Positions 11,863 to 57,888 of a DNA stretch of 64,000 nt are shown piece by piece. Within the stretch, counting starts at the first letter, position 1, and each line of letters starts with the position of its first letter. Source of the stretch: a virus. The position numbers were made by a program, and so were the translations under genes. The notes beneath the pieces were generated by a model. It was not told the DNA's origin. It ran no database searches and saw only the letters and a list, made by a program, of their open reading frames with translations. The DNA lies in IMG/VR virus record IMGVR_UViG_3300025778_000010, positions 44,357 through 108,356 of that record; one strand, written 5' to 3'.

Positions 11863-12098
11863 ATGCTATATTGTAGCACATTTCCACCAATTTTTTACAA
11901 TGTAACGTGTATCACACTAAATTAGATTTGATCAAAATGTTAATGGATTTTTAAAATGCATGATTCACTTTTAAAAACAAAAAATCAAATTTGAATAGTG
12001 CGCCCGAAATGTCCAAATTGCCCTGGTATGTACCCTAAAGATGTGGTCTATCTCACAAAGTTTTTTTAAAAGATGTCCGATTTGTACGCATTTTGGAG

Positions 12099-12127
12099 TT
12101 GAAAATGTCAGTGGTGTGTGTTATAGT
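12099..12127 (+). promoter_or_regulatory. sigmaA-type promoter with TGTCAG spacer element (first of the class)
   Basis: TTGAAA-17-TATAGT, TG extended -10, TGTCAG at 12106. Confidence 0.7.
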
Positions 12128-12183
12128 TACACTATAAGAAATTAACAAAGGTTGTTAGTTTAACTTAAAGAAAGGAAGTCAAA

Positions 12184-12408
12184 ATGACTTCACTAAATAA
12201 CTACTATAATGAAATCCGTATGGATATTGCTAAAGATTTTGGTCTAGAGGCAGGTGGCTATGCTCCCCGCCCTAAGTTAATGCCTATCACTATCGCTCAG
12301 CGTATTAACGCTAAGTATCCTAGTGTAGATAATGGCTCTCGTTGGGGTCAGCCTAATCCAAAGGCTATCCTAATCGCTAAGCGTTATCACGCTCTGTTTG
12401 TGGCGTAA
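12184..12408 (+). CDS. small early hypothetical protein
   Basis: AAAGAAAGGAAG SD; 74 aa. Confidence 0.7.
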   Translation: MTSLNNYYNEIRMDIAKDFGLEAGGYAPRPKLMPITIAQRINAKYPSVDNGSRWGQPNPKAILIAKRYHALFVA

Positions 12409-12423
12409 GTCACAATCACGGCA

Positions 12424-12464
12424 CGGCGTGTCGAGTTGATTTTGTCAGCCCTATCTGATAGACT
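12424..12464 (+). promoter_or_regulatory. GACAC box plus promoter
   Basis: CGGCGTGTCG, then TTGATT-17-TAGACT with TGTCAG spacer. Confidence 0.7.
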
Positions 12465-12494
12465 TCCAGTCATACAAATTAAATAAAGAAAAAT

Positions 12495-12568
12495 CCTAGT
12501 TGAGCCTCTGAGCCTTAGCAAATAATCCGAAAGGTGAGCCTAAGCAAATAAGAGCAAATAACACTAGG
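12495..12568 (+). ncRNA. candidate structured RNA: long hairpin with three identical internal loops
   Basis: CCTAGT/ACTAGG, CTC/GAG, CTTAG/CTAAG and CC-GAAA-GG stems separated by TGAGC opposite CAAATAA three times; downstream of a promoter. Confidence 0.7.
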
Positions 12569-12619
12569 CAAGGAAAGATAGATAAAAGGTTTATCTATAA
12601 AAAAAGAAAGGTGACTAAT

Positions 12620-12766
12620 ATGTCATACTCATTCGATAATAATAATAAAGACCGTTGGTCAGAACTAGCAGACAATTATCAATCAATGCTAGATGAACTA
12701 GCAGAATCAGAATCAGAATCTGTATTTATCCCCGTACCTGCGTTTGATGTAGACGAGGTGCTCTAA
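12620..12766 (+). CDS. small acidic protein (48 aa, not in ORF track)
   Basis: AAAGAAAGGTG SD; MSYSFDNNNKDRWSELAD... Confidence 0.65.
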   Translation: MSYSFDNNNKDRWSELADNYQSMLDELAESESESVFIPVPAFDVDEVL

Positions 12767-12859
12767 TGACTATAAATAGTTTAACTCTCATTTCACTATT
12801 GCTAGTGTCGTACCTATCTGCTAAACTACTAACCGATAAAGAATGGGGAAAGAATAAAA

Positions 12860-13066
12860 ATGAAAACTAAGATTATCGTACTAGGATTAGCACTCGCTCT
12901 AATTCCCGCCGTTGCTAACGCTCGTGGCACAAGCCATCATTCTTATAGCCTGTCTAGTGTAGGTCGCTACACTTATCACTATCACAAGCCTAGCCATATC
13001 TATTGCCCATATCAAGGCTGTAAAAAATCGTTCTCTAGTTTCACTAGCACTAGTGGCGGAAACTAA
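12860..13066 (+). CDS. small secreted His/Tyr-rich protein
   Basis: signal peptide MKTKIIVLGLALALIPAVANA. Confidence 0.6.
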   Translation: MKTKIIVLGLALALIPAVANARGTSHHSYSLSSVGRYTYHYHKPSHIYCPYQGCKKSFSSFTSTSGGN

Positions 13067-13123
13067 TGTCAGTGGTCTATGGTAGACTACTATTAACAAC
13101 AACAAGAAAAGGAAAATAAATAA

Positions 13124-13288
13124 ATGACAATCGAAAATCGTACTTACCAAATCGGTGACCTATTCACCACACAACGCTCAAAGGTAACAGGAACAATTAA
13201 GGAAATTGTAAATGTAAAGCCTAACCAATCTCGTGTGAAGTTGGAAGTTGACGGCAAAGACCGCTGGACAACTGTCACAATCAAGTAA
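13124..13288 (+). CDS. small beta-rich protein, paralog 1 (54 aa, not in ORF track)
   Basis: AGAAAAGGA SD; TYQIGDLFTT...VTG motif shared with 13368..13538. Confidence 0.75.
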   Translation: MTIENRTYQIGDLFTTQRSKVTGTIKEIVNVKPNQSRVKLEVDGKDRWTTVTIK

Positions 13289-13308
13289 AGTTTAGCAAAT
13301 CGCTAAAC

Positions 13309-13335
13309 GACCTGAGCAAGTCGGAAAAAGGCTCA
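13309..13335 (+). ncRNA. small H-type pseudoknot element (copy 1)
   Basis: GAC-CTGAGCAA-GTC hairpin whose loop TGAGC pairs with downstream GCTCA. Confidence 0.5.
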
Positions 13336-13367
13336 ACTAATACCCAACAAAGAAAAGGAAAAAAAGA

Positions 13368-13538
13368 ATGACACTACACGGATACACTTATCAAATCGGA
13401 GATTTATTCACCACATCAAAGACAGGCGTAACTGGACGAATTAACTCGTTCTCTCCTGTATCAAATAAAGTAACTCGTGTTGGTCTAACTTTAGCAAATG
13501 GCTCAAAGCGTATTGCTATGGTAAAGACAACGAAGTAA
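13368..13538 (+). CDS. small beta-rich protein, paralog 2 (56 aa, not in ORF track)
   Basis: AGAAAAGGA SD; TYQIGDLFTT...VTG. Confidence 0.75.
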   Translation: MTLHGYTYQIGDLFTTSKTGVTGRINSFSPVSNKVTRVGLTLANGSKRIAMVKTTK

Positions 13539-13619
13539 AAATAAAATAAGTTTAGGCGGGACTGCACACTAATAACGACACTCCCGCCTAATTCACAAAA
13601 CACGAAAGGAAAACTAATT

Positions 13620-13802
13620 ATGTCAATGTCACGCAAGGACTATGTTTCAACCGCTGAAATTATTAATTCTTATGCTTCAGAAATTAAACTCGAAGTGCTA
13701 GAAGATCTAGTAAATGATTTCATCGAAATGTTCGCATCAGATAACGAGCGATTCAATAGCGATAGATTTTGGGACGAGTGTTTTAAAAACACAAATCACT
13801 AA
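13620..13802 (+). CDS. small early protein
   Basis: GAAAGGA SD; MSRKDY...DNERFNSDRF. Confidence 0.7.
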   Translation: MSMSRKDYVSTAEIINSYASEIKLEVLEDLVNDFIEMFASDNERFNSDRFWDECFKNTNH

Positions 13803-13816
13803 ATAAAAATAAAAGC

Positions 13817-13850
13817 TTAGGCGTAGCAAAATTGCTACGCCTAATTTTAT
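13817..13850 (+). terminator. intrinsic terminator (potentially bidirectional)
   Basis: TTAGGCGTAGCAA/TTGCTACGCCTAA perfect stem with T/A tails. Confidence 0.7.
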
Positions 13851-13870
13851 TAAAAAATAAAAAAAAATAA

Positions 13871-14097
13871 CGGCGTGTCGGCTTGACAAAGCCGAGCCGA
13901 GGGGCTGGCCCAAAAAATCGGACATTTACGGCATTTAAGACATTCGATATACACAGATTTATCCACAAGCTGTGGATTATTGTTCATCTTAAATTAACCT
14001 AAAACTTACGGCGTGTCGCTTGATTTTTTCGATTTTATCTGATAAACTTCCAGTTATAAAATTAAATAAAGATATAAAAAATGTGATGTACTTCACA
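13871..14097. promoter_or_regulatory. composite regulatory module
   Basis: GACAC boxes (13871, 14009), GCTGGCCC (13904), 9-bp repeats (13917), DnaA boxes (13947-13979), PHO-like repeat (13982), promoter (14020-14048), perfect CRP palindrome (14082). Confidence 0.65.
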
Positions 14098-14206
14098 AAG
14101 TACACGCTCCAAATATTGAGACTACTCCCCAGTATACTCGATAGTAGCGAAAAAGTATGTTAAACTAGCGATAGTTAAACAGTTAAAAAAGAAAGGTGGT
14201 CATAAA

Positions 14207-14506
14207 ATGGCTACACTAGAAGTAAAAGTAAATGATAGTTTTGTTCCGCTTGAGTATGCTCCAAGCGATGTAAAGATTTCTCTTGAGTGGGCGTTAATGA
14301 ATAATGCTCCAATGGTAGTAAAATCCACTACCCCCGCCGTTGTTCGTGTTTGCAAAGTTTGCGAATATGCACACGAAGGTTTGTATTGCACAAATTGTTT
14401 CACGGGTGAGCGTGTAAATTGCTCCCCTGCTGGCAAGTTTAATAAATGGTCAAAAGTGATGCGAATCACACCAACTACTTGCAACAAATCTCGGCGTGTC
14501 GCCTAG
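14207..14506 (+). CDS. small Cys-rich (CxxC x2) protein
   Basis: GAAAGGTGG SD; CKVC...CTNC. Confidence 0.65.
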   Translation: MATLEVKVNDSFVPLEYAPSDVKISLEWALMNNAPMVVKSTTPAVVRVCKVCEYAHEGLYCTNCFTGERVNCSPAGKFNKWSKVMRITPTTCNKSRRVA

Positions 14507-14566
14507 ATAATGTCAGTATAATCTGATATAATTCCAACTATCAACAAAAAGAAAGGTGGCAACTTA

Positions 14567-14791
14567 ATGCTAATCTCAGAAGCCTTAGAAGGCAAATATG
14601 TAAAGTCCTCAAAAGGACAAGGCATAATCCAATATGCAGATTTCCGAAAGGATATGCACCACTCTACCCCTGAGGGTTATCTTGCTTATGCTTGCAAGGT
14701 TCGCCCTACTTATAACCCTGAAGTGCATAAGTTTATTCCAGAAGATTTCTGGACAACAATTTATGTCGGATTGGATAGTGAATTACTATGA
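14567..14791 (+). CDS. small early protein
   Basis: own TGTCAG promoter (14504-14532) and GAAAGGTGG SD. Confidence 0.7.
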   Translation: MLISEALEGKYVKSSKGQGIIQYADFRKDMHHSTPEGYLAYACKVRPTYNPEVHKFIPEDFWTTIYVGLDSELL

Positions 14792-14994
14792 CAATTAAAA
14801 TTGGTGGGCTAGGGCAGACAATTTCTGCCTATTGCCCAGTATGCTCTCAAAAGATGACCCATATGTGTATCGCTACACTTGGAACGGGTAAAACAATTCG
14901 CTATGAGTGGCAATGCCAGCCTTGCGAATTATCTCTAAAGTCTGACTCAACAGGCTATGCTCATCTACTCACAGAAATGGCTTACTATGTCTGA
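14788..14994 (+). CDS. small zinc-ribbon protein
   Basis: CPVC...CQPC; ATGA overlap with upstream gene. Confidence 0.65.
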   Translation: MTIKIGGLGQTISAYCPVCSQKMTHMCIATLGTGKTIRYEWQCQPCELSLKSDSTGYAHLLTEMAYYV

Positions 14995-15103
14995 TAAAAT
15001 TTTCATATGTGATGAATGTGATACCCTTGCCACAATGTCAGTGCAAGGTGATACAATAACTATAAATAAATGTAAGTGCTTAACTTTAGAATGGAGCAAC
15101 TAA
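14987..15103 (+). CDS. 38-aa Cys-containing peptide (not in ORF track)
   Basis: overlaps both neighbours; CDEC...CKC; contains the TGTCAG promoter in frame. Confidence 0.5.
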   Translation: MSDKIFICDECDTLATMSVQGDTITINKCKCLTLEWSN

Positions 15104-15309
15104 TGTACAAAATTACAACAACCTATGACGGAAATCCCGTCCCACACTCTATTCACTCTTATGCTGATGCACTTGATGCGTTTGACTCGTTTGGTCGTTG
15201 CACCGATTGGGGATTTGCAGATGAATATGCAACCTACAATTTAACTTTACCTGATGGAAAAATGTACACAAAGATTTTTTATCGTAGCGGAAAAGTTGGT
15301 GGAAAGTAA
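15103..15309 (+). CDS. small early protein
   Basis: GGAG SD, TAATG coupling; MYKITTTYDG... Confidence 0.65.
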   Translation: MYKITTTYDGNPVPHSIHSYADALDAFDSFGRCTDWGFADEYATYNLTLPDGKMYTKIFYRSGKVGGK

Positions 15310-15517
15310 TGGCAACAACAATTCACCTTGGCGGAATAGAATCAGAATGTGAGAAGTGTCGTGAAATTGCGGGAGAAAATAATGAATAAAGTAAATCGTG
15401 TTCAAGAGTTGCGGAGATCAAATGCTGCAACTCCAATTCGTAACAAGAAAAAATATACACGTAAAAATAAATATAAAAATAAATTTGAATAAATATTTAT
15501 AACATTGCATAGCTATG

Positions 15518-15635
15518 CGACACGCCCGAGTGCGGCTGGCCCCTGTCAACTCGACACGCCGATTACGGGGTGTGATTTTAATCTCCCAAATACTGGCGGG
15601 TACAACTAGATAATGTCAGTGGGTTCTGCTATACT
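15518..15635. promoter_or_regulatory. composite regulatory module
   Basis: GACAC boxes, GCTGGCCC, CRP-like site and TGTCAG promoter; near-duplicate of 17216-17358. Confidence 0.65.
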
Positions 15636-15665
15636 TCCGATATCAAGAAAAGAAAGGGGCATTAA

Positions 15666-15893
15666 ATGTCTACTGTTGCCACATATTGCAAAGATTGCAA
15701 TAAGCGTTTATCTGATATTTCAGTATATGACGCTCCCTATACTTCCGATTCTACTTGCTGGGAGTGTATCTTCAAGTCCTGCGATAACTGCTATGGTCAA
15801 GGAATTACTGGATGGGTATCTCCAGATGGTGATTTTGATTTTGATTATTGCGAGTGCAACCCACTTTGCCTAACACTAGAAGAGGTCAAATAA
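15666..15893 (+). CDS. small Cys-rich protein
   Basis: four CxxC/CxC motifs; GAAAGGGG SD. Confidence 0.65.
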   Translation: MSTVATYCKDCNKRLSDISVYDAPYTSDSTCWECIFKSCDNCYGQGITGWVSPDGDFDFDYCECNPLCLTLEEVK

Positions 15894-16084
15894 TGACTAA
15901 TGAAACTATTTTTGAAGTAGCCTGCCTATACTATGAAGTATGCGGTACAAGCGAAGTATTCTACTCTGAAGAAGAGTATGATATCTATGGCGATGATTAT
16001 GTCTGCCCTGAGTGCTATTATCAGATGGCGGAAATGGAGTCTGATTCCTTCCCGCTATCTTTAGAATATGATGAGGGGGAATAA
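15893..16084 (+). CDS. small acidic Cys protein
   Basis: GAGG SD, TAATG coupling; CPEC. Confidence 0.6.
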   Translation: MTNETIFEVACLYYEVCGTSEVFYSEEEYDIYGDDYVCPECYYQMAEMESDSFPLSLEYDEGE

Positions 16085-16218
16085 TGTCTGACAAGTCTGC
16101 TCAAGATCTATTTAATGAAATGGATACCCTTTGGGATAATTTCAAGAAAGCCACATGGCAAATGTCAGTGGTGCCTGCTACAATAACATCCTTAACCCAA
16201 CCAAAGAATGGAAACTAA
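16084..16218 (+). CDS. 44-aa peptide (not in ORF track)
   Basis: GAGGGGG SD, TAATG coupling. Confidence 0.5.
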   Translation: MSDKSAQDLFNEMDTLWDNFKKATWQMSVVPATITSLTQPKNGN

Positions 16219-16693
16219 CATGACAACAACCCTAACCCGTGGCGAAGCCAAAGATACAATTGATTTCGCAATTGAACAATTTATCAACGAGATTGAAGTC
16301 TCTGATGATATGCTATTAACGATTACCTATGCCGTAAATAATGACTTGCAGATTCGTGATTACTTCCTTGGGCTCCCGTCCGATTATGGTATGCAGGTAT
16401 GCGTTGATTTTGTCAACTATCTTTCACGAGTAACTAATGCACGAGAAGGATATGCATATGACACAATTTCTGCAATGTATCATATTGAACAAGGCAACAC
16501 AGACTTGGCTAAGTCTCTGCTAGAAATTGCAGAAAAAAATAATCCTGATTATAATCTCATGAAACTTGCGAAGAGAATTCTTTCAGCAGGTTGGCCAGGT
16601 TCCGAATTAACTAGAATGCGTAATGAATTGCATTCTTCAGTTGTGGATACTATCACCGAAGAGCCAAATATTTTAATTGAAGAGGTGGCGTAA
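16208..16693 (+). CDS. helical hypothetical protein (DUF4192-like)
   Basis: DLQIRD...A..L..A....PDY.L..L....L.AGWP pattern. Confidence 0.55.
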   Translation: METNMTTTLTRGEAKDTIDFAIEQFINEIEVSDDMLLTITYAVNNDLQIRDYFLGLPSDYGMQVCVDFVNYLSRVTNAREGYAYDTISAMYHIEQGNTDLAKSLLEIAEKNNPDYNLMKLAKRILSAGWPGSELTRMRNELHSSVVDTITEEPNILIEEVA

Positions 16694-16851
16694 TGTCAGC
16701 ACCATATGCAACAATTAACGGCGTTGAGGTTCATGAGGACCTCAACGGCTATGCCGTGGTCATGAAGAATGGCAAGGTAATTAAAAAGTATACCAACTCA
16801 AGAGAAGACGCATTAGGCAAAGCAATGCACTATGCACAGGAGATTAAATAA
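16693..16851 (+). CDS. 52-aa protein (not in ORF track)
   Basis: GAGGTGG SD, TAATG coupling. Confidence 0.6.
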   Translation: MSAPYATINGVEVHEDLNGYAVVMKNGKVIKKYTNSREDALGKAMHYAQEIK

Positions 16852-17067
16852 ATGGCAAAGCATCCACCAGTCAACAGTGCACAATGGCATTCTGTATTTG
16901 CAGATGATCAATGCAAAATTTATCAAGACGGTAACGATGATATTTTTTTCAAGGTCATGATCAAGGGCCAACGTGTTAAATATTTTTATAATGAAACAGC
17001 TCATAGCGACGTTGCACGTTACTGCAGCGACGAGCTTGGAATTAGCTATTGGTCCGTATTAAATTAA
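16852..17067 (+). CDS. small early protein
   Basis: AGGAG SD. Confidence 0.65.
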   Translation: MAKHPPVNSAQWHSVFADDQCKIYQDGNDDIFFKVMIKGQRVKYFYNETAHSDVARYCSDELGISYWSVLN

Positions 17068-17182
17068 TTTAACTTGGGTGGGGAATAAAATGCAAGCGGT
17101 AGCATATGTATTGGTCTATGGATCTGCATTCGCTATCGCATGCATTTTTTATTTTATATTTTCTAAAAAAGATTTTTAAATG

Positions 17183-17358
17183 CGGTGTGTCGAGTTGACA
17201 ACCGTTGATTTTTGGGCTGGCCCGTCAAGCCGACACGCCGTTTACGGGGCGTGATTTTAATCACATGGAATGGGCGGGGACAAAACGGACATATCAGACA
17301 AATCATTATTTAACTTAGGCTTTACGGGTAGACAGATGTCAGCCTTATCTGCTAGAAT
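17183..17358. promoter_or_regulatory. composite regulatory module with inverted GACAC-TTGAC arms around GCTGGCCC
   Basis: CGGTGTGTCGAGTTGAC...GCTGGCCC-GTCAAGCCGACACGCCG, CRP site 17250, 9-bp repeats 17278, promoter TAGACA-18-TAGAAT. Confidence 0.7.
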
Positions 17359-17389
17359 AGGCATACATTAACAGAAAGAAGGAAAAAAT

Positions 17390-18430
17390 ATGACTAACCC
17401 AATGTCACAGGTTCATCGCTCAGAAGTTGAGGATGGTTCTGTATCTCTTGCTGTATCACTTCGCACAAATCCTGCATGGCACTCTTTTGCTAACAAGGTA
17501 TTTGCTAAGGATGAGCAAGTCACAACCGCACAAATGCTAGATGCTGCTAAACTCTCAAATTGGAATGTTTCTCTTGAGTCTGTTTCAGATTTATTGCCAG
17601 ACAACTATGATTCTGTTAGCGAGAATTTTTTGGTTGTTCGTGATAACCCTTACACAGCAGGACAAAAAGATGTTCTCTCAGTTGTAGGCTCACGCTATAA
17701 GGCTGTTCAGAATGAAGAACTCTTTTCTTTTGCAGATAACCTACATGATGGAAACCCTGATGTAAATTGGGAAAGTGCAGGTTCTCTAAAGAATGGTCGT
17801 GTTGTATTTGGCACAATGTCAATTCCCCGCACTATGGTTCTTGACCCTAATGGTGCTAATGACACTACCAATCTTTATCTCGTAGTTTACACTTCACACG
17901 ATGGTTCAGTTGCGGTTCAATCTGCAATTACCCCTGTTCGTGTTATGTGTCAAAACACTCTTAATTTCGCTATGCGTAAGGCTAAGCAATCTTTCAAGAT
18001 TCGCCACACTCAGACAGTAGATGGAAAAATTGCTGCTGCTCGTGAGACTCTAGGTCTAACTCTTGCGTACATGGATGAATTCGAAACACAAGCAAAAGAA
18101 CTTTTCTCTCGTGAAGTGACAAATGCTAAGTTTAGCGAAATCATTAACAAGATGTATCCTAAGCCAGAGGCAGATGTTAAGGGTTCAATCAAGAAGTGGG
18201 AAAACAAGGTTGTTCTGCTTGATGACCTTTACCATAACTCTCCTACTAATGCTAATATCAAGGGTACAGCATGGGGCGTTGTAAATGCTCTAACCGAACG
18301 CCTTGATTACTATCGCACAGCCCGCAAGGGAAACAGCGATTCGCTAATGGCAGGTGCAAGCGGATTTGACCCTGTTATCACAGCAGAAAAAAATAAAATT
18401 GTTAAGCAGGTTCTTGCACTTACCGCTTAA
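17390..18430 (+). CDS. DUF932-family phage/plasmid protein (TIGR03299-like)
   Basis: PAWH, VGSRYKAVQN, ESAGSLKNGRVVF, SHDGS, TPVRVMCQNTL, GTAWGVVNALTE. Confidence 0.85.
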   Translation: MTNPMSQVHRSEVEDGSVSLAVSLRTNPAWHSFANKVFAKDEQVTTAQMLDAAKLSNWNVSLESVSDLLPDNYDSVSENFLVVRDNPYTAGQKDVLSVVGSRYKAVQNEELFSFADNLHDGNPDVNWESAGSLKNGRVVFGTMSIPRTMVLDPNGANDTTNLYLVVYTSHDGSVAVQSAITPVRVMCQNTLNFAMRKAKQSFKIRHTQTVDGKIAAARETLGLTLAYMDEFETQAKELFSREVTNAKFSEIINKMYPKPEADVKGSIKKWENKVVLLDDLYHNSPTNANIKGTAWGVVNALTERLDYYRTARKGNSDSLMAGASGFDPVITAEKNKIVKQVLALTA

Positions 18431-18436
18431 TAAATT

Positions 18437-18465
18437 GTGAGGGGCGAAAGCCCCTCACCTCTCTT
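18437..18465 (+). terminator. GAAA-capped hairpin (terminator or processing signal)
   Basis: GTGAGGGGC-GAAA-GCCCCTCAC. Confidence 0.55.
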
Positions 18466-18539
18466 GATTCCATAGATCAATTGGTTAGATCGCTACCCTG
18501 TCACGGTAGAGGTTGCGGGTTCAAGTCCCGTTGGAATCG
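18466..18539 (+). tRNA. tRNA-Asp(GTC)
   Basis: GATTCCA/TGGAATC acceptor, CTACC-CTGTCAC-GGTAG anticodon arm, GGTTCAAGTCC T-arm. Confidence 0.92.
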
Positions 18540-18559
18540 CAAAGTTTAAATGGTCATCA

Positions 18560-18718
18560 CGGCGTGTCGAGTTGACAAAACAGCTGGGGCGGGCTGGCCC
18601 CATAAAATCCATAATGTCAAGTCTTTACGGATGTGATTATAAACACATTTACGGATGACCGATATGTCCGATTTGTCTGCGTGTCTAAATTGATTACTCA
18701 TGGGTAACTTGCTATAAT
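18560..18718. promoter_or_regulatory. composite regulatory module
   Basis: CGGCGTGTCGAGTTGACA, GCTGGCCC (18593), CRP-like site (18632), 9-bp repeats (18655), TTGATT-17-TATAAT. Confidence 0.65.
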
Positions 18719-18726
18719 ACTCACCT

Positions 18727-19368
18727 ATGGAAAATGTAAAAGAAACTTGGTTCAAATGGGATTATGTATGCCCAAATTGCGATGCACATATTGAGATGAC
18801 TATTAAATCTAATGGTCATCCACATAGCGAGATTTGTTCTAAATGCTATGAGCGTCTAACTCTGATGTCAGTGGTAGATGCTACAATATACCCAACTCAA
18901 AAGAAAGAAGAACAAACTATGGAAACAACAATCGCTGAACTTTATAACCCAAATATGTTGGTTACATATAAGAAGATTACTGATGGTAATACTGAATATA
19001 TTACTGATAAGGTAACTGATATTGAGTGGGCTCTTGCTCAATCCCGCCGTAACTATGAGAGCCTTACAGAGCAACAAAATAATTGGTATCTCAAAGAGTC
19101 AAAACTACGCACTTTGCTAAATGATGTATTTCACGATTCAGAAGACCAAGACACACTTGAAAAAATTGCTGATATTTTTGATGTTCCACTAACTAAGGAA
19201 ATCGAAGTAACCGCTTGGGTCAATGTCAATATGACTATCGAAGTTGATATGCGTGAAGGCGAATATGATGTTGAAGACCTTGTTCGCAATAATCTCACAG
19301 TAGATGCCTATGGTGGAGAAATCACAGTTCACGACTTTGATGTAGACCGAGTAGAGGAGCAATACTAA
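18727..19368 (+). CDS. zinc-ribbon plus acidic domain protein (probable second internal start)
   Basis: CPNC...CSKC; internal TGTCAG promoter (18866) and A/G-rich SD before METTI. Confidence 0.65.
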   Translation: MENVKETWFKWDYVCPNCDAHIEMTIKSNGHPHSEICSKCYERLTLMSVVDATIYPTQKKEEQTMETTIAELYNPNMLVTYKKITDGNTEYITDKVTDIEWALAQSRRNYESLTEQQNNWYLKESKLRTLLNDVFHDSEDQDTLEKIADIFDVPLTKEIEVTAWVNVNMTIEVDMREGEYDVEDLVRNNLTVDAYGGEITVHDFDVDRVEEQY

Positions 19369-19640
19369 TGGCAGTAGCAGTTATTGAAGTCCCGTCCCCT
19401 GCTCGTATGGCGAACGGGATTAGCAAATGCCTAACCGCTGGAATTGAATATGAGATGCTGGGTGGGATGCAGGTAGAGATTACTTGTGCTGATGAGATGA
19501 AGTTAGCTAGAATAATTACAGCCTTTGGCGGTAAAATCCTAAGTGCTTTTAATCATAAACCAATCACACCAGATGCCCCTAAGCACGAAGTCCAATATGC
19601 TAGGACACATAGACCAATTCAGACACGCCGAAAGAATTGA
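19368..19640 (+). CDS. hypothetical protein
   Basis: GAGGAG SD, TAATG coupling. Confidence 0.6.
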   Translation: MAVAVIEVPSPARMANGISKCLTAGIEYEMLGGMQVEITCADEMKLARIITAFGGKILSAFNHKPITPDAPKHEVQYARTHRPIQTRRKN

Positions 19641-19705
19641 CATAAGCACCCCGCTTGTGTTAGAATACAACCTCAACCCCTAACAAAGAAAAGGAAAACC
19701 CAACA

Positions 19706-20122
19706 ATGGCAAAAGCAATCTCAGTTAAAGTAGCAACACCAAAGGTAATCGCCGCTTTGGAAACAAAGTTGGAAACAATAAAAACAACTAAGGCAAATGA
19801 AAAGCAATTAGAGGCTGCTTTCCAAGAAGAACTAAAGGCTTGGAATAAGGCTTTGTTTGATTATGCTCTATCAAAGTTTGACTCTGCTACAAATATCCGC
19901 ACCAATTATCGTAGTTGGTCAAACTCTCTTAACATTGACTTTGATGTTGATACACAAGGCAAGGATTTTCCTGCTCAACCTACTCGTCAATTTGAGCAAC
20001 TTCACGACCACAACTATCGTGAAATTGTTGATGAAATTGAGAACGCAATTCGTATTCTCAAAATGACAGATGAGGAAACAGTTAATGCTTCCACATTTAA
20101 GTCAATCGCACAGTATCTCTAA
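19706..20122 (+). CDS. conserved phage hypothetical protein
   Basis: TTGACA-18-TAGAAT promoter, AGAAAAGGA SD, 138 aa. Confidence 0.75.
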   Translation: MAKAISVKVATPKVIAALETKLETIKTTKANEKQLEAAFQEELKAWNKALFDYALSKFDSATNIRTNYRSWSNSLNIDFDVDTQGKDFPAQPTRQFEQLHDHNYREIVDEIENAIRILKMTDEETVNASTFKSIAQYL

Positions 20123-20135
20123 TTAGTTAATCACT

Positions 20136-20166
20136 TGGGAGGGAAGTCTTGACTTCCCTCCCCTTA
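20136..20166 (+). terminator. hairpin terminator overlapping the next -35
   Basis: GGGAGGGAAGTC-TT-GACTTCCCTCCC. Confidence 0.55.
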
Positions 20167-20251
20167 TCTGATAGGATACGCAAATGGCAATCATATTTTT
20201 ATTAGGCACAATTTTTGTAATCGCAGTAATAGCACTAGGAGGAATACTATA

Positions 20252-20620
20252 ATGGGAGCACGAGTTAATTTTGTTTTCAAGACCGAGGAAGACAAGCCAA
20301 AGATTGTTTTGTATAGTCATTGGGGAGAATACTCATGGCGTGAAGATTTGGCTAATGCCTTAGATAAGGCAACACCTAGATTAAAAATGGGTGATAGTTC
20401 ATATGCTCTCCGTATTATCATTGACCAACTAACAAAAGAAGGTCGGGATGAAGAAACAGGCTTCGGTCTTTATATTGCGGATGAAGACCAAATGTATTGG
20501 GATACCACAGTTGAAGTAGACCTTACAACTCAACAGGTAAATGATGAAGGAAACTGGCATTCATTTTCATCATTCATTGAATATCAAGGTGAGGTGTTAG
20601 AGTATCATGTTGGGGTATAA
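20252..20620 (+). CDS. conserved phage hypothetical protein
   Basis: AGGAGG SD; MGAR...LYSHWG motif. Confidence 0.7.
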   Translation: MGARVNFVFKTEEDKPKIVLYSHWGEYSWREDLANALDKATPRLKMGDSSYALRIIIDQLTKEGRDEETGFGLYIADEDQMYWDTTVEVDLTTQQVNDEGNWHSFSSFIEYQGEVLEYHVGV

Positions 20621-20877
20621 ATTAGAGGATTTGAATAAGATGATTGATGCTACTTATTTAGCTTTAAATTATCTTCCCCCCGCACAAACAGATCTTGCAG
20701 ATAATCTAGCCAAAGCAAATGATTTTCTCCAGGGTCTTTGGGCAGAGGGCTACTTTGAGTAGCCTGAGCCTGACCAGTAATTTGGACATTTACGACATTA
20801 CGGACATTACGGAGGATCGCTTGAACACATTTACGAGGGGCTTGACAAAACCTTTTACGATAGGATAAAATAGGGCT

Positions 20878-21063
20878 ATGAAAGAATACGAGATACTAGC
20901 AACCCAATCAATTTACCTATCAAAGAAGGTAATGGCTGAAACAGAGGCAGAAGCAAATGCTATTGCTGCAAACACACCAGTAGATGAGTGGACAACTGAT
21001 TCTACTGAATTAATTATTGATTTCCTACGCACAGAACCTGTGCAGTTACGACTTGACATCTGA
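20878..21063 (+). CDS. small protein, probably leaderless
   Basis: TTGACA-18-TAAAAT ends 6 nt before the ATG. Confidence 0.6.
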   Translation: MKEYEILATQSIYLSKKVMAETEAEANAIAANTPVDEWTTDSTELIIDFLRTEPVQLRLDI

Positions 21064-21116
21064 TATCTTGATGTAGTAGAATACCCATACTGACCAACTA
21101 GTAGAAAGAATGACAA

Positions 21117-21839
21117 ATGCCAAACTGGGTGTATAACGGATTAACCATTGAAGGTAGTCCTGAATCTGTAGATAAACTTGTATCTCAACTTAATCAACCA
21201 TTTACTGTGATGCACGAAACATGGGATATTTCTACCAATTCTTTTATTAAGAAAAATACTCTTTATTCAAACCCTGTTTTTGCATTTTGGAATATAGTTA
21301 AACCAACAGACATGGATGCATATTATGGTCCAAGTCCAAAAGTTGATTTAAATAAGCCTATTAGATTTGATTCAAATCATTGGTACGACTGGAATGTGCG
21401 TAACTGGGGAACAAAATGGGATGTAGCCATATCTGTAACTGAAAGCCATCCAGAAACATATATGGAAGGCCCTATTAATAACGGTGATAATAAAGTAGTT
21501 TATTATAACTTTAATACTGCTTGGAGTTATCCTGAGCCTGCTATTAAGAATCTTTCTTTACAGTTCTCCGACCTTTTATTTACGTTAGGCTACGAAGAAG
21601 AAACAGGCTGGGGTGGCGAAGCAGAATTCCTTAGAGGCGAAATAATTAGTCATAATCAATATGACTACAAATGTAAAGACTGTGAATATGCAACTAGTGA
21701 TGCATTAGAGTTTTGCGAAGACTGCTCAGATTATCCTTGTCCGCAATGTGGTTGGGCGAGTGCAGTTGACGAATGCCCTGTCCATAGTGTAGAATACGAC
21801 CAGAAACAAACCCAACTACAGGAGGCAAATAATGTCTGA
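21117..21839 (+). CDS. YubB/DUF1281-like ferredoxin-like domain protein
   Basis: MPNWVYN, WYDWNVRNWGTKWD, FNTAWSYP. Confidence 0.8.
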   Translation: MPNWVYNGLTIEGSPESVDKLVSQLNQPFTVMHETWDISTNSFIKKNTLYSNPVFAFWNIVKPTDMDAYYGPSPKVDLNKPIRFDSNHWYDWNVRNWGTKWDVAISVTESHPETYMEGPINNGDNKVVYYNFNTAWSYPEPAIKNLSLQFSDLLFTLGYEEETGWGGEAEFLRGEIISHNQYDYKCKDCEYATSDALEFCEDCSDYPCPQCGWASAVDECPVHSVEYDQKQTQLQEANNV

Positions 21840-22092
21840 CCAATTAACTTTAGACCCATATCTACAACGTATGGTTGAAGCAGGTATGGACGGTGCGGAT
21901 ATCATGCACGGTCATCTTAAGGTCCTAATGGCACGTGCAGAGAGTGCATTAGCAGACGCCATAGAGGACGAAGAGGCTTCGGGTGAGGCCATGGATAGCA
22001 TGGAGCGACGGTACTGGGAGGGTGTGGAAGAAGCATACTCAGAACTGTATAAATTAACTTATGCTATTGCATTTGCAAAGGCGGGTAAGTAA
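21832..22092 (+). CDS. hypothetical protein
   Basis: AGGAGG SD. Confidence 0.65.
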   Translation: MSDQLTLDPYLQRMVEAGMDGADIMHGHLKVLMARAESALADAIEDEEASGEAMDSMERRYWEGVEEAYSELYKLTYAIAFAKAGK

Positions 22093-22216
22093 TGAAGACT
22101 TATCGTATCACTTTTATCTGTGATGAAAAATGGTTAGAAGCCATTAATAAATTTACAGATGTAGATGTATATGACAACGAAATATTATACATAGAGCACT
22201 TTGAGGAGATCAACTA

Positions 22217-22531
22217 ATGTCATCATCAATGTTTGTACAAACCAATTCATATCTAGATAATCTAAAATGGGAGTTTCCTAATCATGCCCCGTTGGTCCTA
22301 TTGTACATGTGGGACATCACCCGTGATGTCTTTCAAGATATTGAATTATCTGACGGGGATTCTTCTTGGGGAGAACTTATCCCAGTTCCTGGAACTACTT
22401 TAGAGGATGTATGGAATAAGTTTATTAAAGATCCTTGGGGCGGATTTGACGTAGAAGAATATGATGTAGTACAATGGTTGTCCCGTGAAGACTTTATCCA
22501 AGACTATGAGGGCGAGGAAGTAGATGAATAA
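22217..22531 (+). CDS. acidic hypothetical protein
   Basis: GAGGAG SD. Confidence 0.65.
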   Translation: MSSSMFVQTNSYLDNLKWEFPNHAPLVLLYMWDITRDVFQDIELSDGDSSWGELIPVPGTTLEDVWNKFIKDPWGGFDVEEYDVVQWLSREDFIQDYEGEEVDE

Positions 22532-22820
22532 ACTAGAAGAGCGTACATATAAAAAGCTTGTAGAAGGCCTTGGACACAACGATGTCTCACCTGCAGCAAT
22601 GGCAAGACATATGTTAAATGAATCTCGTTATGTTAACGAATCGTTCATCCAATTGTTTACAAACTACATAATCCAAATGGGCACCGCACATACGGTCCCA
22701 CTATATCTAAAAGAATCACACGATTTGTGCAAGTACATGCTTACCACCCTGCAGGAGTTGGGCCTAATGGGAGAATATGGAAGAATGGAACTTGACACAA
22801 ACGAATACCTGTCGGTATAA
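22524..22820 (+). CDS. hypothetical protein
   Basis: overlapping operon gene, GAGG SD. Confidence 0.6.
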   Translation: MNKLEERTYKKLVEGLGHNDVSPAAMARHMLNESRYVNESFIQLFTNYIIQMGTAHTVPLYLKESHDLCKYMLTTLQELGLMGEYGRMELDTNEYLSV

Positions 22821-22875
22821 TAGGTATTCGAACAAAATCCTAGCGTTCAGGTGTCAGCCAAGTTAGGTATACAAG

Positions 22876-22915
22876 GGCAGTTCACGAGTCATTCCGTGAA
22901 CTGCCTTTCTCTTTT
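22876..22915 (+). terminator. intrinsic terminator closing the plus-strand island
   Basis: GGCAGTTCACG/CGTGAACTGCC followed by TTTCTCTTTT. Confidence 0.8.
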
Positions 22916-22942
22916 CCCAGAGCCAGAGATCTAAAAACCCAG

Positions 22943-23275
22943 ACATTACGAAGGGGCTTAAAATTCACGGGGAGTTTGCTGGTTTAAACTAACACATTAA
23001 TAAAAATATATCAAAGCCAGTATAAGAAATATACCAGACATTACGAAGGCATATACGGTAACATTTGTCAAGAGATATCTGTGTGATCTTGATCATATAT
23101 TTATATAAAATGTATAATAAAATAAAAACATTACGATTTCGATCAAAATTCACACGATATTCTATACATTTAGATCAAAATTGTCTAATATTATATCAAA
23201 ATTGTCAAAAATGTGTGCAAAATCACCCATATTTTTATGTGATATATATCATATCGCACGGATTTGACATTACGA
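22943..23275 (+). repeat. four dispersed ACATTACGA repeats
   Basis: copies at 22943, 23038, 23128, 23267. Confidence 0.75.
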
Positions 23276-23359
23276 AGGGCATTATGGTATGCTCTATAAC
23301 TTGATACAATCTATCTATATATACTAACTGAGTTTATTTAACATAATACTGTGTATATT

Positions 23360-23385
23360 CTCCACTTTGCTCCACAATGCTCCAC
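23360..23385 (-). promoter_or_regulatory. triple GTGGAG-N4 repeat (MraZ-box-like)
   Basis: plus strand CTCCAC-TTTG-CTCCAC-AATG-CTCCAC. Confidence 0.6.
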
Positions 23386-23458
23386 ATATAGCCCATAAAA
23401 AGGGCGGAAACGAGCGTTAGCGAGTCTACTTTATATAGCCAGATAGCAACCTATAGCC

Positions 23459-25946: not shown

Positions 25947-26859
25947 TTGCGTTTAGATTCCTTTAACTTTTTATTTCTGTTAGACCAAGCAAGCTTTTGT
26001 AGTTTTTCAAGCTTTCTATACTCATCTAATGGTGGACATTCATTACACCAGTGAAAACTAGTTGCTTGCCAATGCCCCCGCTTTACCGCACACATTTCAT
26101 AAGTCATTACTTATGCTCCTTTGATATATGATTATTTAAAGTATGATGTGCAAACCCAGAGCGTACTTCTACCTCCCGTTTGCATTCAGGACATATTACT
26201 ATCCTAGCCATTTTCTTTTTGCTCCTTTACCCAAGCATCTCCTGCCATCTCTTCATAGCAATCGCCACATATCTTTTGATCACCCAGCATCATATAACGC
26301 TTTCTGAGGCTTTTGCAATATGGGCATCTATTATAAGTCCCGCTCATTTTTTAGTCGCTATCGCCCAAATTGCAGTAGCAATCATTGCAATTACTCCAGT
26401 TCCCCAAATTCCAAGAACAATTCTATACCACACAATTCCTTGCAGGAACCCTTTATCTCTTGTGTCGTAACCCATTAGTAACCACCTAAACAATTAATAG
26501 ATTTAGTATGTCTTGTGTATTGCATCAGATATTCTGATTTACTTGGAGCATAAAAGTCTTTACCACAAGCCCCGCAATTACCTGACCATTCTTCTTCAAA
26601 GAAGTTATATGTCATGATCTTAATGCGTGGATTTGTAGTTACTGGCGATGTCTTTTTTTGTTTCCGTATTTGTTCTCTACGTCTTGTTTGCATTTGTCTA
26701 CAATCGCTTTCGTTAGTAGTTCAATACGACGGGAAGATTCAAGAGCACGTATATCATCCCAGTCCATAGGATCTTCTTGTTGGTTCATACTGTATTATAT
26801 CAATCAGTGTTGTGTTTTGTCAATAGGGTATTCATCATCAAACTCTTTTTCATTTATCA

Positions 26860-27294
26860 TTAATTAATCCATTCATCAAACAATGTATATTCTACATCAT
26901 CATCTTCTAATTGTAAATATCTAATTTCATCAATAAAATTATATTTTAAAGCAGCTTTTAACATTTTGTCTGACGAGCTACCTTCAACTGGATAAGATGA
27001 AAAATAAACAATGTAATATGCGTTAGCGTTTACTTTTTTTAATAATGCTCCATTAGCAATTGCTTTTTTAACATTATCTGTTCTCTTAGCCCCTGGACGC
27101 TTTTTATCGCCTTCTGCCCCGCCTTTTGCTTCAATATAATGGCCATAGTCGCCAAAAAAATCAACTTGAATGCCAATTTCAGGAATATCAAAATTCTTTT
27201 TTAAATCAATATATTCACGATTAATTAAATCTTTATATACTAAGTCTTCAAACTTATCGCCAGATCTTTTAGATTCGGCTTGAAAGTCAATCAT
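26860..27294 (-). CDS. PD-(D/E)XK restriction-endonuclease-like protein
   Basis: GDKFE...QVDF...IEAKG. Confidence 0.65.
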   Translation of the reverse strand: MIDFQAESKRSGDKFEDLVYKDLINREYIDLKKNFDIPEIGIQVDFFGDYGHYIEAKGGAEGDKKRPGAKRTDNVKKAIANGALLKKVNANAYYIVYFSSYPVEGSSSDKMLKAALKYNFIDEIRYLQLEDDDVEYTLFDEWIN

Positions 27295-31512: not shown

Positions 31513-32203
31513 TTAATTCCTCCGCTGAAATTGTTTTACCAACATAACGATGCTTAAGTATATAATCTCTTACAGACTCAGGACCATTTTGTCTTCCGCC
31601 AAGGATAATAACCCATCGTGGCTCAAATTTTTGATCAATACAGACCTGACACATATAGAGCATTACTCCATTAATTATATCGGATTTTTGTGGATGTAGC
31701 TCATTTTTTGATTTTCCACAGCTAAAGCACAGCATTATAGACCTTCCGTCTCATCAATATAACCTATTCCTATTTCATCTACTATATTAAACTCATCATT
31801 TGGCACTTCTACCAAATATTGAACACCGCCTTCAAAATATTCAATTAAAGATACCCAAGCACCATGTCTTTTTACAGTTCCATAGACATCTTCGTATGGA
31901 AGATATACGTAGGTGATTGAATCTTCAGCGTTGTCCCCGTCTTGCCCTTGCTTGCTCATCAGTGTATTTCATCCCTTCTATTTCGCATGGAGTCCCAAAT
32001 GCTTGAATTAATTCACGAACATGAAGTAAGTATTCCATGATCTGCATTCTTTGACTTTCGTTGTATTCCATAACATTACTTTCATAAACAGTTAAAGCAA
32101 GGTAGTTTGGTCTTGCTCTGACATCTAATATAAGATTTTTAACAGGACATTTAATTGCCCTAATCCTTTTAGCCATTTCAACTGTGTAAGATATTTTTGC
32201 CAT
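31505..32203 (-). other. three conserved small hypothetical genes (31505-31735 CxxC, 31735-31959, 31925-32203)
   Basis: overlapping co-oriented ORFs between whiB and trx. Confidence 0.6.
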
Positions 32204-32504
32204 GAATTTTCTTTAACTGACTCCATATTTCTGGGTCTTTGTGTGAGTTATTTTGTTTATCTATACGACCTAAGTCCATAAAAATACCGCCTCGTACACC
32301 AAACTCTTTATTTGCTACACCTTCTTTATGACATTGTTTAATTACTGGACAATGTAAACAAACTTGATCAATTTGTTTGGCAAGCTCTTTATCTGATTCA
32401 TAATCATCATAAAACCAATTAATTGACATATTTGTGCATGCTGCAAGGTGATACCATTTGATATCAACTTCATCAATTCCTAAATGACTAAATAAACCTG
32501 GCAT
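32178..32504 (-). CDS. whiB: WhiB-family Fe-S transcription factor
   Basis: W...AAC...C..CPV...C...G....EFGVRGG: four Cys plus G(V/I)WGG-like turn. Confidence 0.85.
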   Translation of the reverse strand: MPGLFSHLGIDEVDIKWYHLAACTNMSINWFYDDYESDKELAKQIDQVCLHCPVIKQCHKEGVANKEFGVRGGIFMDLGRIDKQNNSHKDPEIWSQLKKIHGKNILHS

Positions 32505-32718
32505 ACTTATCGCTAACCTTCCAAGTACCACGGTTAGTCATTTTATAATAAGTTGCGTATCCCCACTTACCTTTTCTAAACAAACCATTTGTTGCCATGT
32601 AACCATCAGGGTTTTGATTCCACTTTACTAAAGTATAACCGTCCCAAAAAAAATTGTTTTTAATATTTTTTTCTACAAAAGCATGTGCTTCTTCGTAGTT
32701 TAATTCAAAAGATGGCAT
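32488..32718 (-). CDS. hypothetical protein
   Basis: 76 aa, coupled to groES. Confidence 0.6.
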   Translation of the reverse strand: MPSFELNYEEAHAFVEKNIKNNFFWDGYTLVKWNQNPDGYMATNGLFRKGKWGYATYYKMTNRGTWKVSDKYARFI

Positions 32719-57795: not shown

Positions 57796-57888
57796 TTTTT
57801 TTCTCCTATTAGTTAGTTGACAGATGGGGCTTCACATGAAGCGGGATTTGAAACCCTCTTATATATAATTTTCCATCTGTTTCTCTGA

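Follow-up and report, generated by a model that had tools for sequence, protein, structure and literature searches.

The 64-kb stretch of viral DNA analysed here (the window; 37% GC) comprises bases 44357-108356, the final 64 kb, of the 108,356-base record IMGVR_UViG_3300025778_000010, which is rated complete by CheckV and classed as linear. Its subject is a block of 11.6 kb at 11.86-23.46 kb of the window, hereafter the island, in which about 40 very small plus-strand open reading frames (ORFs; 12184-22820) are flanked by minus-strand blocks, and whose control regions carry sites resembling those of the actinobacterial regulators WhiA, PafBC, CRP and MraZ. Pfam families are nearly absent from the island ORFs, the matches being DUF932 (17390-18430), one DUF1281_C and two that are sub-threshold; indeed scans of 35 island and neighbouring ORFs revealed no DNA-binding family. 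A search of 11.0-24.5 kb against Rfam returned tRNA only, and neither LexA boxes nor parS are present in the window. Promoters at 19.6-22.8 kb are of a plain TTGACA/TTGACG-N18-TAnAAT type and lack host-type boxes.

The phage encodes a DnaE-type polymerase that shares 57% identity with its counterparts in Streptomyces phages of the Stanwilliamsviridae (clusters BK and BE). Outside the island it also has a WhiB-like gene on the minus strand (32178-32531), which scores 37 bits with Pfam Whib, for which the cut-off is 23.6. WhiB-like proteins occur exclusively in Actinobacteria (PMC6282962), and thus the host of a phage encoding WhiB is likely to be actinobacterial. The possibility of a Firmicute phage with plain sigma-A promoters (37% GC, strong Shine-Dalgarno sites) was dropped in view of the DnaE match to Streptomyces phages and the presence of WhiB. 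Six-frame searches of the phage with hidden Markov models detected WhiB but no MraZ, DnaA C-terminal domain, Crp helix-turn-helix, WYL or WhiA helix-turn-helix. Among cultured phages a near-identity search gave no match, and a distant search matched only the DUF932/DUF945 gene; IMG/VR, by contrast, holds a large family of relatives. The comparisons below use 80 IMG/VR loci, on contigs of up to 120 kb, with a DUF932 protein 53-92% identical to that of the window. These loci amount to 1.35 Mb at 37.7% GC, and motif counts in them are set against a reversed-pattern control; for localization within the phage, the island represents 10.7% of the genome.

The word CGGCGTGTCG, at no more than one mismatch, occurs ten times in the window against 0.26 expected. 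All the copies lie at 12424-19630, and the 108-kb genome contains no copy elsewhere (10/10 within the island). Its reverse complement, CGACACGCCG, is identical at all ten letters to the top WhiA motif from chromatin immunoprecipitation (ChIP) in Mycobacterium tuberculosis as quoted in PMC13473873, a study whose own motif, obtained by ChIP-seq and with purified WhiA, is GACACGCC. The original prediction had proposed that the spacers are tiled with WhiA boxes recognized by the pentamer GACAC. This holds for the 10-mer, of which GACAC is the core and which in the relatives outnumbers its control by 295 to 1, but not for bare GACAC, which is found 59 times in the window against 70 expected and is as frequent in the related loci as the control. 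The boxes stand 1-2 nucleotides (nt) upstream of TTGAY hexamers of the -35 type, and in the logo of the relatives TTGACA begins two bases past the box. At 12424, 14009 and 14492 the box precedes a hexamer in the -35 position (TTGATT twice, TAGATA at 14492), N17 and TAnAnT. A composite of WhiA box, two bases and TTGAC is also present in 38 of 251 sampled Actinomycetes chromosomes (41 matches against one for the reversed control); three of these matches lie upstream of rpmH, one of the ORFs concerned being Pfam L34. The small (1.0-1.5 Mb) Actinomycetes genomes sampled contain no exact composite. The WhiB encoded by the phage is a likely partner for the WhiA boxes.

A further class of sites, which the original prediction missed, comprises promoters of the PafBC type. 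The published PafBC motif is tGTCgg(N10)tA(N3)T, in which a -26 element replaces the -35 and is read by RNA polymerase containing SigA through ‘sigma adaptation' (PMC8635444); PafBC is activated by single-stranded DNA (PMC11804915). The geometry TGTCAG-N10-TAnnnT is represented eight times in the window against 1.8 expected, and TGTCAGTG-N8-TAnnnT by six exact and two one-mismatch sites; in both cases every site is on the plus strand. Described by its longer core, the element is ATGTCAGTGG followed after 7 nt by TAnAnT (five exact, three variants), again all on the plus strand and ahead of genes, and eight of the nine PafBC-type sites of the whole genome are within the island. The window sites keep the published spacing exactly and mostly lack a -35 consensus at 17 nt: the hexamers in that position are AAACTA, GCCACA, TAGATA, TGGCAA, AGACAG and ACTCTG, with TTGAAA at 12099 only. 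The promoters at 12099, 12424 and 14492 also carry a -35-like hexamer and/or a WhiA box. In the related loci ATGTCAGTGG was counted 208 times against none for the control, with 205 copies forward and three reverse, and the logo reads AATGTCAGTGG-N4-TG-N-TATAAT with no information upstream of the motif.

Sites of the CRP type (TGTGA-N6-TCACA at one mismatch or fewer), which the spacers had been predicted to carry, are indeed over-represented, with 12 in the window against 3.0 expected and a ratio of 379:1 to the control in the relatives. Nine are in the island, out of 13 genome-wide; one of these is an exact palindrome, and the others contain one mismatch (Table 1). When the first T of the -10 is taken as -12, the window boxes are centred at -54.5, -63.5, -64.5, -76.5, -84.5, -85.5 and -107.5 relative to predicted starts, and thus appear roughly phased. 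In the relatives the distance from the start of the palindrome to that of TGTCAG peaks at 44, 49, 54 and 64 nt.

The proposal that three GTGGAG boxes form an MraZ site is also borne out. The triplet, read on the given strand as CTCCAC with 4-nt spacers, is the sole one in the genome and lies within the island at its right boundary, and CTCCAC-N4-CTCCAC was found 74 times in the relatives against none for the control. MraZ sites consist of three GTG(G/T) boxes 6 nt apart (PMC12957436). When one genome per prokaryotic species was scanned for GTGGAG-N4 three times over, 81 of the 120 matches listed, most of them from Actinomycetota, preceded an MraZ-type N-terminus by no more than 420 nt, so that the triplet marks mraZ promoters; one ORF downstream of a chromosomal triplet is Pfam MraZ (2e-38). 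The phage-family consensus and the chromosomal triplets also agree in their A-rich spacers (TAAA). The predicted DnaA box is present in the form of TTATCCACA with an inverted one-mismatch partner, TAATCCACA, and TTATCCACA is conserved in the relatives (277:21); the window, however, is not enriched in such boxes (19 against 23 expected at one mismatch or fewer), and contains this single inverted pair rather than an oriC-like cluster of TT(A/G)TCCACA. In the relatives the right-hand non-coding block holds three to five DnaA boxes clustered directly beside the MraZ triplet, and the family consensus of the box, GGTTATCCACAGGCTTACG, is longer than a DnaA box requires. A PhoP site was rejected, as the GTTCAYY-type 11-nt repeats are neither recurrent nor conserved: the 22-mer that had been read as a PHO box at 13982 recurs only in two close relatives, where its position is unchanged, and the generic two-unit pattern occurs 19 times against 20 for the control.

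The sites are a property of the phage family. They are kept even in the most distant relatives (DUF932 protein 53% identical), and in 26 full-length 21-kb loci they all fall between -8 and +7 kb relative to the DUF932 gene. Where window spacers are aligned with those of the relatives the same boxes stand out as conserved islands, and the footprint of the left boundary spacer (11863-12183) is kept in 18 relatives. The logos display sharp cores and uninformative flanks, except for the -35 past the WhiA box and the TG-extended TATAAT past the PafBC element. The sites are also combined in fixed ways. In hybrid promoters the WhiA box is followed at +19 nt by TGTCAG, a spacing with 14 occurrences in the relatives. 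Many spacers of the relatives are likewise fixed composites: in one, a WhiA box is separated by 8 nt from a CRP palindrome, which is separated by about 12 nt from a DnaA box and CGTAAGCC; another consists of WhiA box, TTGACA, GACAAATCGGACAT and CRP palindrome. Of the original prediction, the claim of sites for several host regulators stands for WhiA, CRP and MraZ, and gains PafBC, which it did not list; DnaA is weak in the window and PhoP fails. The description of the blocks as non-coding needs amendment, as several sites (14492, 15036, 16163, 18866 and 19621) fall within the 3'-terminal codons of the ORFs that precede them.

Other words recur in the same spacers and also escaped the original prediction: ATGTCCGATTTGT (five copies, all in the island), GACATTACGAAGG (three), GGCTGGCCC (four) and TTACGG. 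The GGCTGGCCC copies have a constant polarity, all being on the plus strand, and are located 15 nt past a rightward WhiA-box/TTGACA and/or directly ahead of a leftward one. As a family-level site GGCTGGCCC was rejected, since it is present in only one of the 80 related loci, and its distribution suggests a recently spread module. The word ATGTCCGATTT exceeds its control by 125:1 in the relatives, and one copy is found in Streptomyces phage Wofford. Words of the type GATCAAAAT(G/T)T are present in both boundary spacers (at 11930, range 11930-11946, and at 23141, 23172 and 23195, range 23141-23215), are kept in the relatives, and could be iterons or boundary repeats. The arrangement of all these elements is given in Table 1.

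Table 1. Spacers, promoters and boxes of the island, in window coordinates.
Feature	Position	Strand	Components and context
Left boundary spacer	11863-12183	+	CRP-type boxes 11901-11916 and 12042-12057 (1 mismatch each)
ATGTCCGATTTGT in left boundary spacer	12073-12086
Promoter TTGAAA-ATGTCAGTGG-N7-TATAGT	12099-12127	+	-10 at 12122-12127; for gene 12184-12408
Composite	12399-12464	+	CRP-type box 12399-12414 (1 mismatch); WhiA box 12424-12433
Promoter within this composite	12436-12464	+	-35 TTGATT 12436-12441; TGTCAG 12443-12448; -10 TAGACT 12459-12464
PafBC-type promoter ATGTCAGTGG-N7-TAGACT	13060-13088	+	overlaps stop of ORF 12860-13066; for gene 13124-13288
Composite spacer	13871-14097	+	WhiA box 13871-13880 + TTGACA; GGCTGGCCC 13903-13911; ATGTCCGAT (reverse complement) 13912-13925; TTTACGG 13925; DnaA-box inverted pair 13959-13979 (TTATCCACA 13959-13967, TAATCCACA 13971-13979); PHO-like letters 13982-14003; WhiA box 14009-14018 + TTGATT-N17-TAAACT (to 14048)
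Exact CRP-type palindrome	14082-14097		end of composite spacer 13871-14097
CRP-type box, 1 mismatch	14455-14470		within ORF upstream of hybrid promoter
Hybrid promoter	14492-14532	+	WhiA box 14492-14501; TAGATA; TGTCAG 14511-14516; -10 TATAAT 14527-14532
PafBC-type promoter ATGTCAGTGC-N7-TACAAT	15029-15057	+	within upstream small ORF
Spacer module	15518-15635	+	two minus-strand WhiA boxes (15518-15527, 1 mismatch; 15552-15561) around GGCTGGCCC 15534-15542
Terminator-like hairpin, then ATTTTAAT	15555-15574		5' arm = WhiA box 15552-15561
PafBC-type promoter TAGATA-ATGTCAGTGG-N7-TATACT	15607-15635	+
PafBC-type promoter ATGTCAGTGG-N7-TACAAT	16156-16184	+	within ORF 16084-16218; for gene 16220-16693
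Spacer module	17183-17358	+	face-to-face WhiA-box/TTGAC composites 17183-17200 (+) and 17224-17240 (-) around GGCTGGCCC 17215-17223; hairpin 17234-17253; CRP-type box 17250-17265 (1 mismatch); ATGTCCG (reverse complement) 17279-17292; TTTACGG 17321
Promoter ATGTCAGCC-N8-TAGAAT	17336-17358	+	for DUF932 gene 17390-18430
tRNA-Asp	18466-18540
Spacer past tRNA-Asp	18560-18718	+	WhiA box 18560-18569 + TTGACA; GGCTGGCCC 18592-18600; CRP-type box 18632-18647 (1 mismatch) between two TTTACGG; ATGTCCGATTTGTC 18664-18677
Promoter TTGATT-N17-TATAAT	18690-18718	+	end 8 nt before ATG 18727
PafBC-type promoter ATGTCAGTGG-N7-TACAAT (repeat D9)	18859-18887	+	within ORF 18727-19368, upstream of in-frame ATG 18919
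Final WhiA box, 1 mismatch	19621-19630	-	adjoins first plain promoter TTGACA-N18-TAGAAT 19637-19666
Right boundary non-coding block	22821-23458		GACATTACGAAGG three times (22942, 23037, 23266)
CRP-type boxes of right boundary block	23082-23097; 23238-23253		1 mismatch each
ATCAAAATTGTC-type repeats of right boundary block	23141-23215
Promoter TTGACA-N18-TATGCT	23264-23293		right boundary block
MraZ-type triplet CTCCAC-N4, three times	23360-23385		GTGGAG on minus strand

Several features of the island genes and of the record deserve mention in their own right. The ORF at 18727-19368 (plus strand, 213 residues) starts only 8 nt past a consensus -10, and its mRNA may thus be leaderless. The N-terminus of its product has a weak DpnI-like match (24 bits, below the cut-off), and the PafBC-type promoter, ribosome-binding site and in-frame ATG inside the ORF make two nested products possible. 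The genes at 13124-13288 and 13368-13538 (plus strand) are adjacent paralogues encoding 54 and 56 residues (repeat D8, 73% identical over 59 nt). A leader of about 150 nt that is free of ORFs (12466-12620, plus strand) separates the promoter at 12424-12464 from gene 12620-12766. At 22792-22918 (plus strand) a perfect promoter, TTGACA-N18-TATAAT (12/12), stands about 50 nt ahead of a terminator hairpin of 14 pairs (22873-22908). No ORF is present, and the unit is a candidate source of an RNA of about 90 nt; the 3' part of this putative transcript, CCTTTCTCTTTTCC, is complementary to the AAAGAAAGG leaders common to island genes. Elsewhere in the window a 94-nt tRNA-like gene (57832-57925, minus strand) with a four-base anticodon (ctaa), to which ARAGORN assigns no amino acid, is situated among six ordinary phage tRNAs. 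Outside the window, a whole-genome k-mer census revealed a tandem array at about 26,830-27,050 of the record, in which a unit of 12-18 nt, with the variants CACCCACTCCAA and CTCCAACACC, is present in at least ten copies. The first and last ~35 bases of the record (the genome start and window 63965-64000) have 12-mers in common, which suggests a short end overlap, and hence a circular or permuted assembly, despite the linear class.

The exact, family-conserved sites of host-lineage regulators in the spacers indicate that the phage probably ties its small-gene block to the state of the cell through WhiA, PafBC, CRP and MraZ sites. We favour, with moderate confidence, a model in which host RNA polymerase transcribes the island from promoters in which these sites are embedded, so that expression would be conditional on host state. 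In this model polymerase carrying the housekeeping sigma factor would read the plus-strand block from control regions assembled from actinobacterial regulator sites. Around eight promoters that lack a -35, in which TGTCAG(TGG) is 10 nt upstream of an often TG-extended -10, would be read by PafBC, activated by single-stranded DNA, through sigma adaptation. At the ten CGACACGCCG boxes host WhiA would act, bridged to sigma region 4 by WhiB, of which the phage would supply its own. The CRP/GlxR-type palindromes, at around 55-108 nt upstream of the inferred starts, would provide a cyclic AMP (cAMP) input, while the right-hand non-coding block would contribute an MraZ-type operator and, in the relatives, clusters of DnaA boxes. 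Expression of the block would thus depend on DNA-damage or single-stranded DNA, cell-division and cAMP signals of the host. That it is the phage promoters that host factors control is favoured by the fixed spacing that the sites keep to them.

It should be emphasized, however, that several observations weigh against host-state control. The remaining seven WhiA boxes of the window are not followed by a -10, and in the relatives TAnnnT is located at 16-18 nt in just 73 of 205 composites of WhiA box and TTGAY; as most composites are devoid of a -10, many WhiA boxes stand outside recognizable promoters. Three window composites have TGGCCC (part of GGCTGGCCC) exactly at the -10 position, and others are arranged face to face. 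The minus-strand WhiA boxes at 15552 and 17231 each double as the 5' arm of a terminator-like hairpin with a ATTTTAAT tail, and the CRP-like box at 17250 overlaps the second of these tails; it could be argued that such boxes are structural elements and not protein sites. The distances from CRP palindrome to promoter include a 5-nt, half-turn step, unlike simple class I activation. The MraZ triplet is at no obvious gene promoter: the block around it is free of genes, the inferred start of the promoter at 23264-23293 is 60 nt upstream, and the phage contains no mraZ. At the left end of Streptomyces phage Wofford (cluster BE) is a comparable block of small genes, in which the DUF945 gene is gene 3, and this block contains a single ATGTCCGATTTGTC but no WhiA, PafBC, CRP or MraZ motifs; with the motifs lacking in the cultured relative, no tested system backs the model.

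As most island ORFs fall outside Pfam families, an unrecognized phage DNA-binding protein could read some of the motifs. Taken further, some or all of the sites would be bound by unrecognized proteins of the phage itself, for instance the small ORFan products of the island, and would then be a normal set of early and middle phage promoters and operators whose likeness to host sites reflects mimicry or coincidence. We regard this explanation as unlikely. It would account for the equally conserved ATGTCCGATTT, TTACGG and GACATTACGAAGG, for which we can name no host counterpart, and for a DnaA-like consensus that exceeds the needs of DnaA. Against it, four independent motifs agree, in sequence as well as geometry, with host sites known from publications or chromosomes (WhiA at 10/10 letters; the PafBC core with N10; three GTGG boxes at 6-nt intervals separated by A-rich spacers; a perfect CRP palindrome of 5+5), homologues of these factors were not detected in the phage, and the WhiB that the phage does encode works only with host sigma and, in known cases, with host WhiA. 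More improbable still is that the repeats are mobile promoter/terminator cassettes, recombination joints that, like the promoter-early stem-loop (PeSL) cassettes of T4-type phages, shuffle small genes and carry only basic promoter information. Such joints would be in keeping with spacers that consist of a terminator-like hairpin and a promoter, with a mosaic order and content of genes between cassettes from one relative to another, against matches of 80-95% for spacer pieces, and with GGCTGGCCC modules that are specific to the window genome, as expected of recent spread. Recombination joints, however, do not need exact host-factor sequences, and leave unexplained why short cores are conserved between unconserved flanks down to 53% protein identity; cassettes are also compatible with host-state control and do not replace it.

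The original prediction had offered two functions, the reading of host state and a multi-factor sponge. The former fits the geometry, as the sites are locked to the -10, to the -35 or to preferred upstream distances; for the latter, specific support is confined to the WhiA-box/TTGAC composites that lack a -10. As a decoy, the boxes would mainly titrate host WhiA/WhiB, MraZ, DnaA, CRP and PafBC as the genome is amplified, derailing division, replication and the damage response of the host, with any effect on phage transcription secondary. Around two thirds of the composites in the relatives, without a -10 at promoter distance, fit this role, as do the window composites that are paired face to face (17183/17240) or have TGGCCC in the -10 position, and the location of the MraZ triplet, with the adjoining DnaA-box clusters of the relatives, in a gene-free block. 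Each genome copy, moreover, offers ten WhiA boxes against 149 WhiA ChIP peaks in the M. tuberculosis chromosome (PMC13473873), and thus some 100 phage copies could compete for WhiA. A sponge, however, needs neither fixed geometry nor strand, whereas the PafBC-type elements never occur without a -10 and are aimed into genes (205 forward against three reverse) and the CRP boxes hold preferred promoter distances; with one MraZ operator and two DnaA boxes per window genome it would also be weak. As the main function of the island we therefore consider titration quite improbable. There is a small chance that the island is both sensor and weapon. Its promoters would then fire on host PafBC, WhiA/WhiB and CRP signals while, with amplification of the genome, the many WhiA-box/TTGAC composites without a promoter, the MraZ operator and the DnaA clusters of the relatives draw the cell-cycle regulators off the chromosome, halting division and replication in the host with no need for an inhibitor protein dedicated to the task. 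Sponge, unrecognized phage readers and recombination cassettes remain as rivals of, or additions to, host-state control.

This study points to a whole family of large uncultured actinobacterial phages whose small-gene control regions are assembled from at least four host-type sites, among them a PafBC -26 element in place of -35 recognition and an exact WhiA box alongside a phage-encoded WhiB. If host-state control is correct, it would mean that a virus in nature exploits sigma adaptation and the WhiA/WhiB division switch, and would account for the frequent presence of whiB in actinophages. A further benefit would be compact, portable promoters with testable dependence on PafBC, WhiA, CRP and MraZ in M. 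smegmatis, C. glutamicum and Streptomyces.

Boxes for individual host regulators, among them LexA, Spo0A and DnaA, are known from phages; we found no publication on an architecture in which host-regulator sites are combined in phage promoters. The PeSL cassettes of T4-type phages reportedly contain plain sigma-70 early promoters, and are not known to embed host transcription-factor sites. Similar to the PeSLs, the island has units of hairpin and promoter between very small genes, with a gene content that is mosaic among relatives. The virulent phage phi29 is said to have Spo0A boxes at its early promoters. The likeness lies in host master-regulator sites within the early control region of a lytic phage, such that the programme would follow host physiology; phi29, however, uses one factor, whereas the phage described here has at least four host-type sites in fixed modules, including a putative activator that replaces -35 recognition. 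The terminal repeat of T5 contains an array of DnaA boxes in the untranslated injection-stop region, a function that is itself just proposed (bioRxiv 10.1101/866236). As in T5, a large virulent phage carries conserved host DnaA boxes within an extensive non-coding stretch of an early region of small genes, and the relatives have three to five in the terminal block; unlike T5, the window phage has a single inverted pair.

The PafBC-type sites share the 22-nt tGTCgg-N10-tAnnnT architecture, usually without a -35, of PafBC-dependent promoters of the RecA-NDp or recA P1 type in Mycobacterium and other Actinobacteria (PMC8635444). In contrast to these chromosomal promoters they are phage-borne, are present in eight copies ahead of tiny ORFan genes and often have a TG-extended -10, and their dependence on PafBC is a prediction. 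With respect to promoters activated by WhiA and WhiB, such as the WhiA/WhiB2 regulon of M. tuberculosis (PMC13473873) and sepX of S. venezuelae (PMC10243135), most phage boxes differ in the lack of a recognizable -10, and some are arranged as inverted pairs. In sepX a stretch of about 7 bp contacted by WhiB separates the box from the -35, whereas the phage box is on the template strand, at just 3 nt from TTGAC. The box itself, however, is identical to the M. tuberculosis consensus and adjoins a -35-type hexamer, and, as in the known WhiA/WhiB systems, a WhiB is present, here encoded by the phage.

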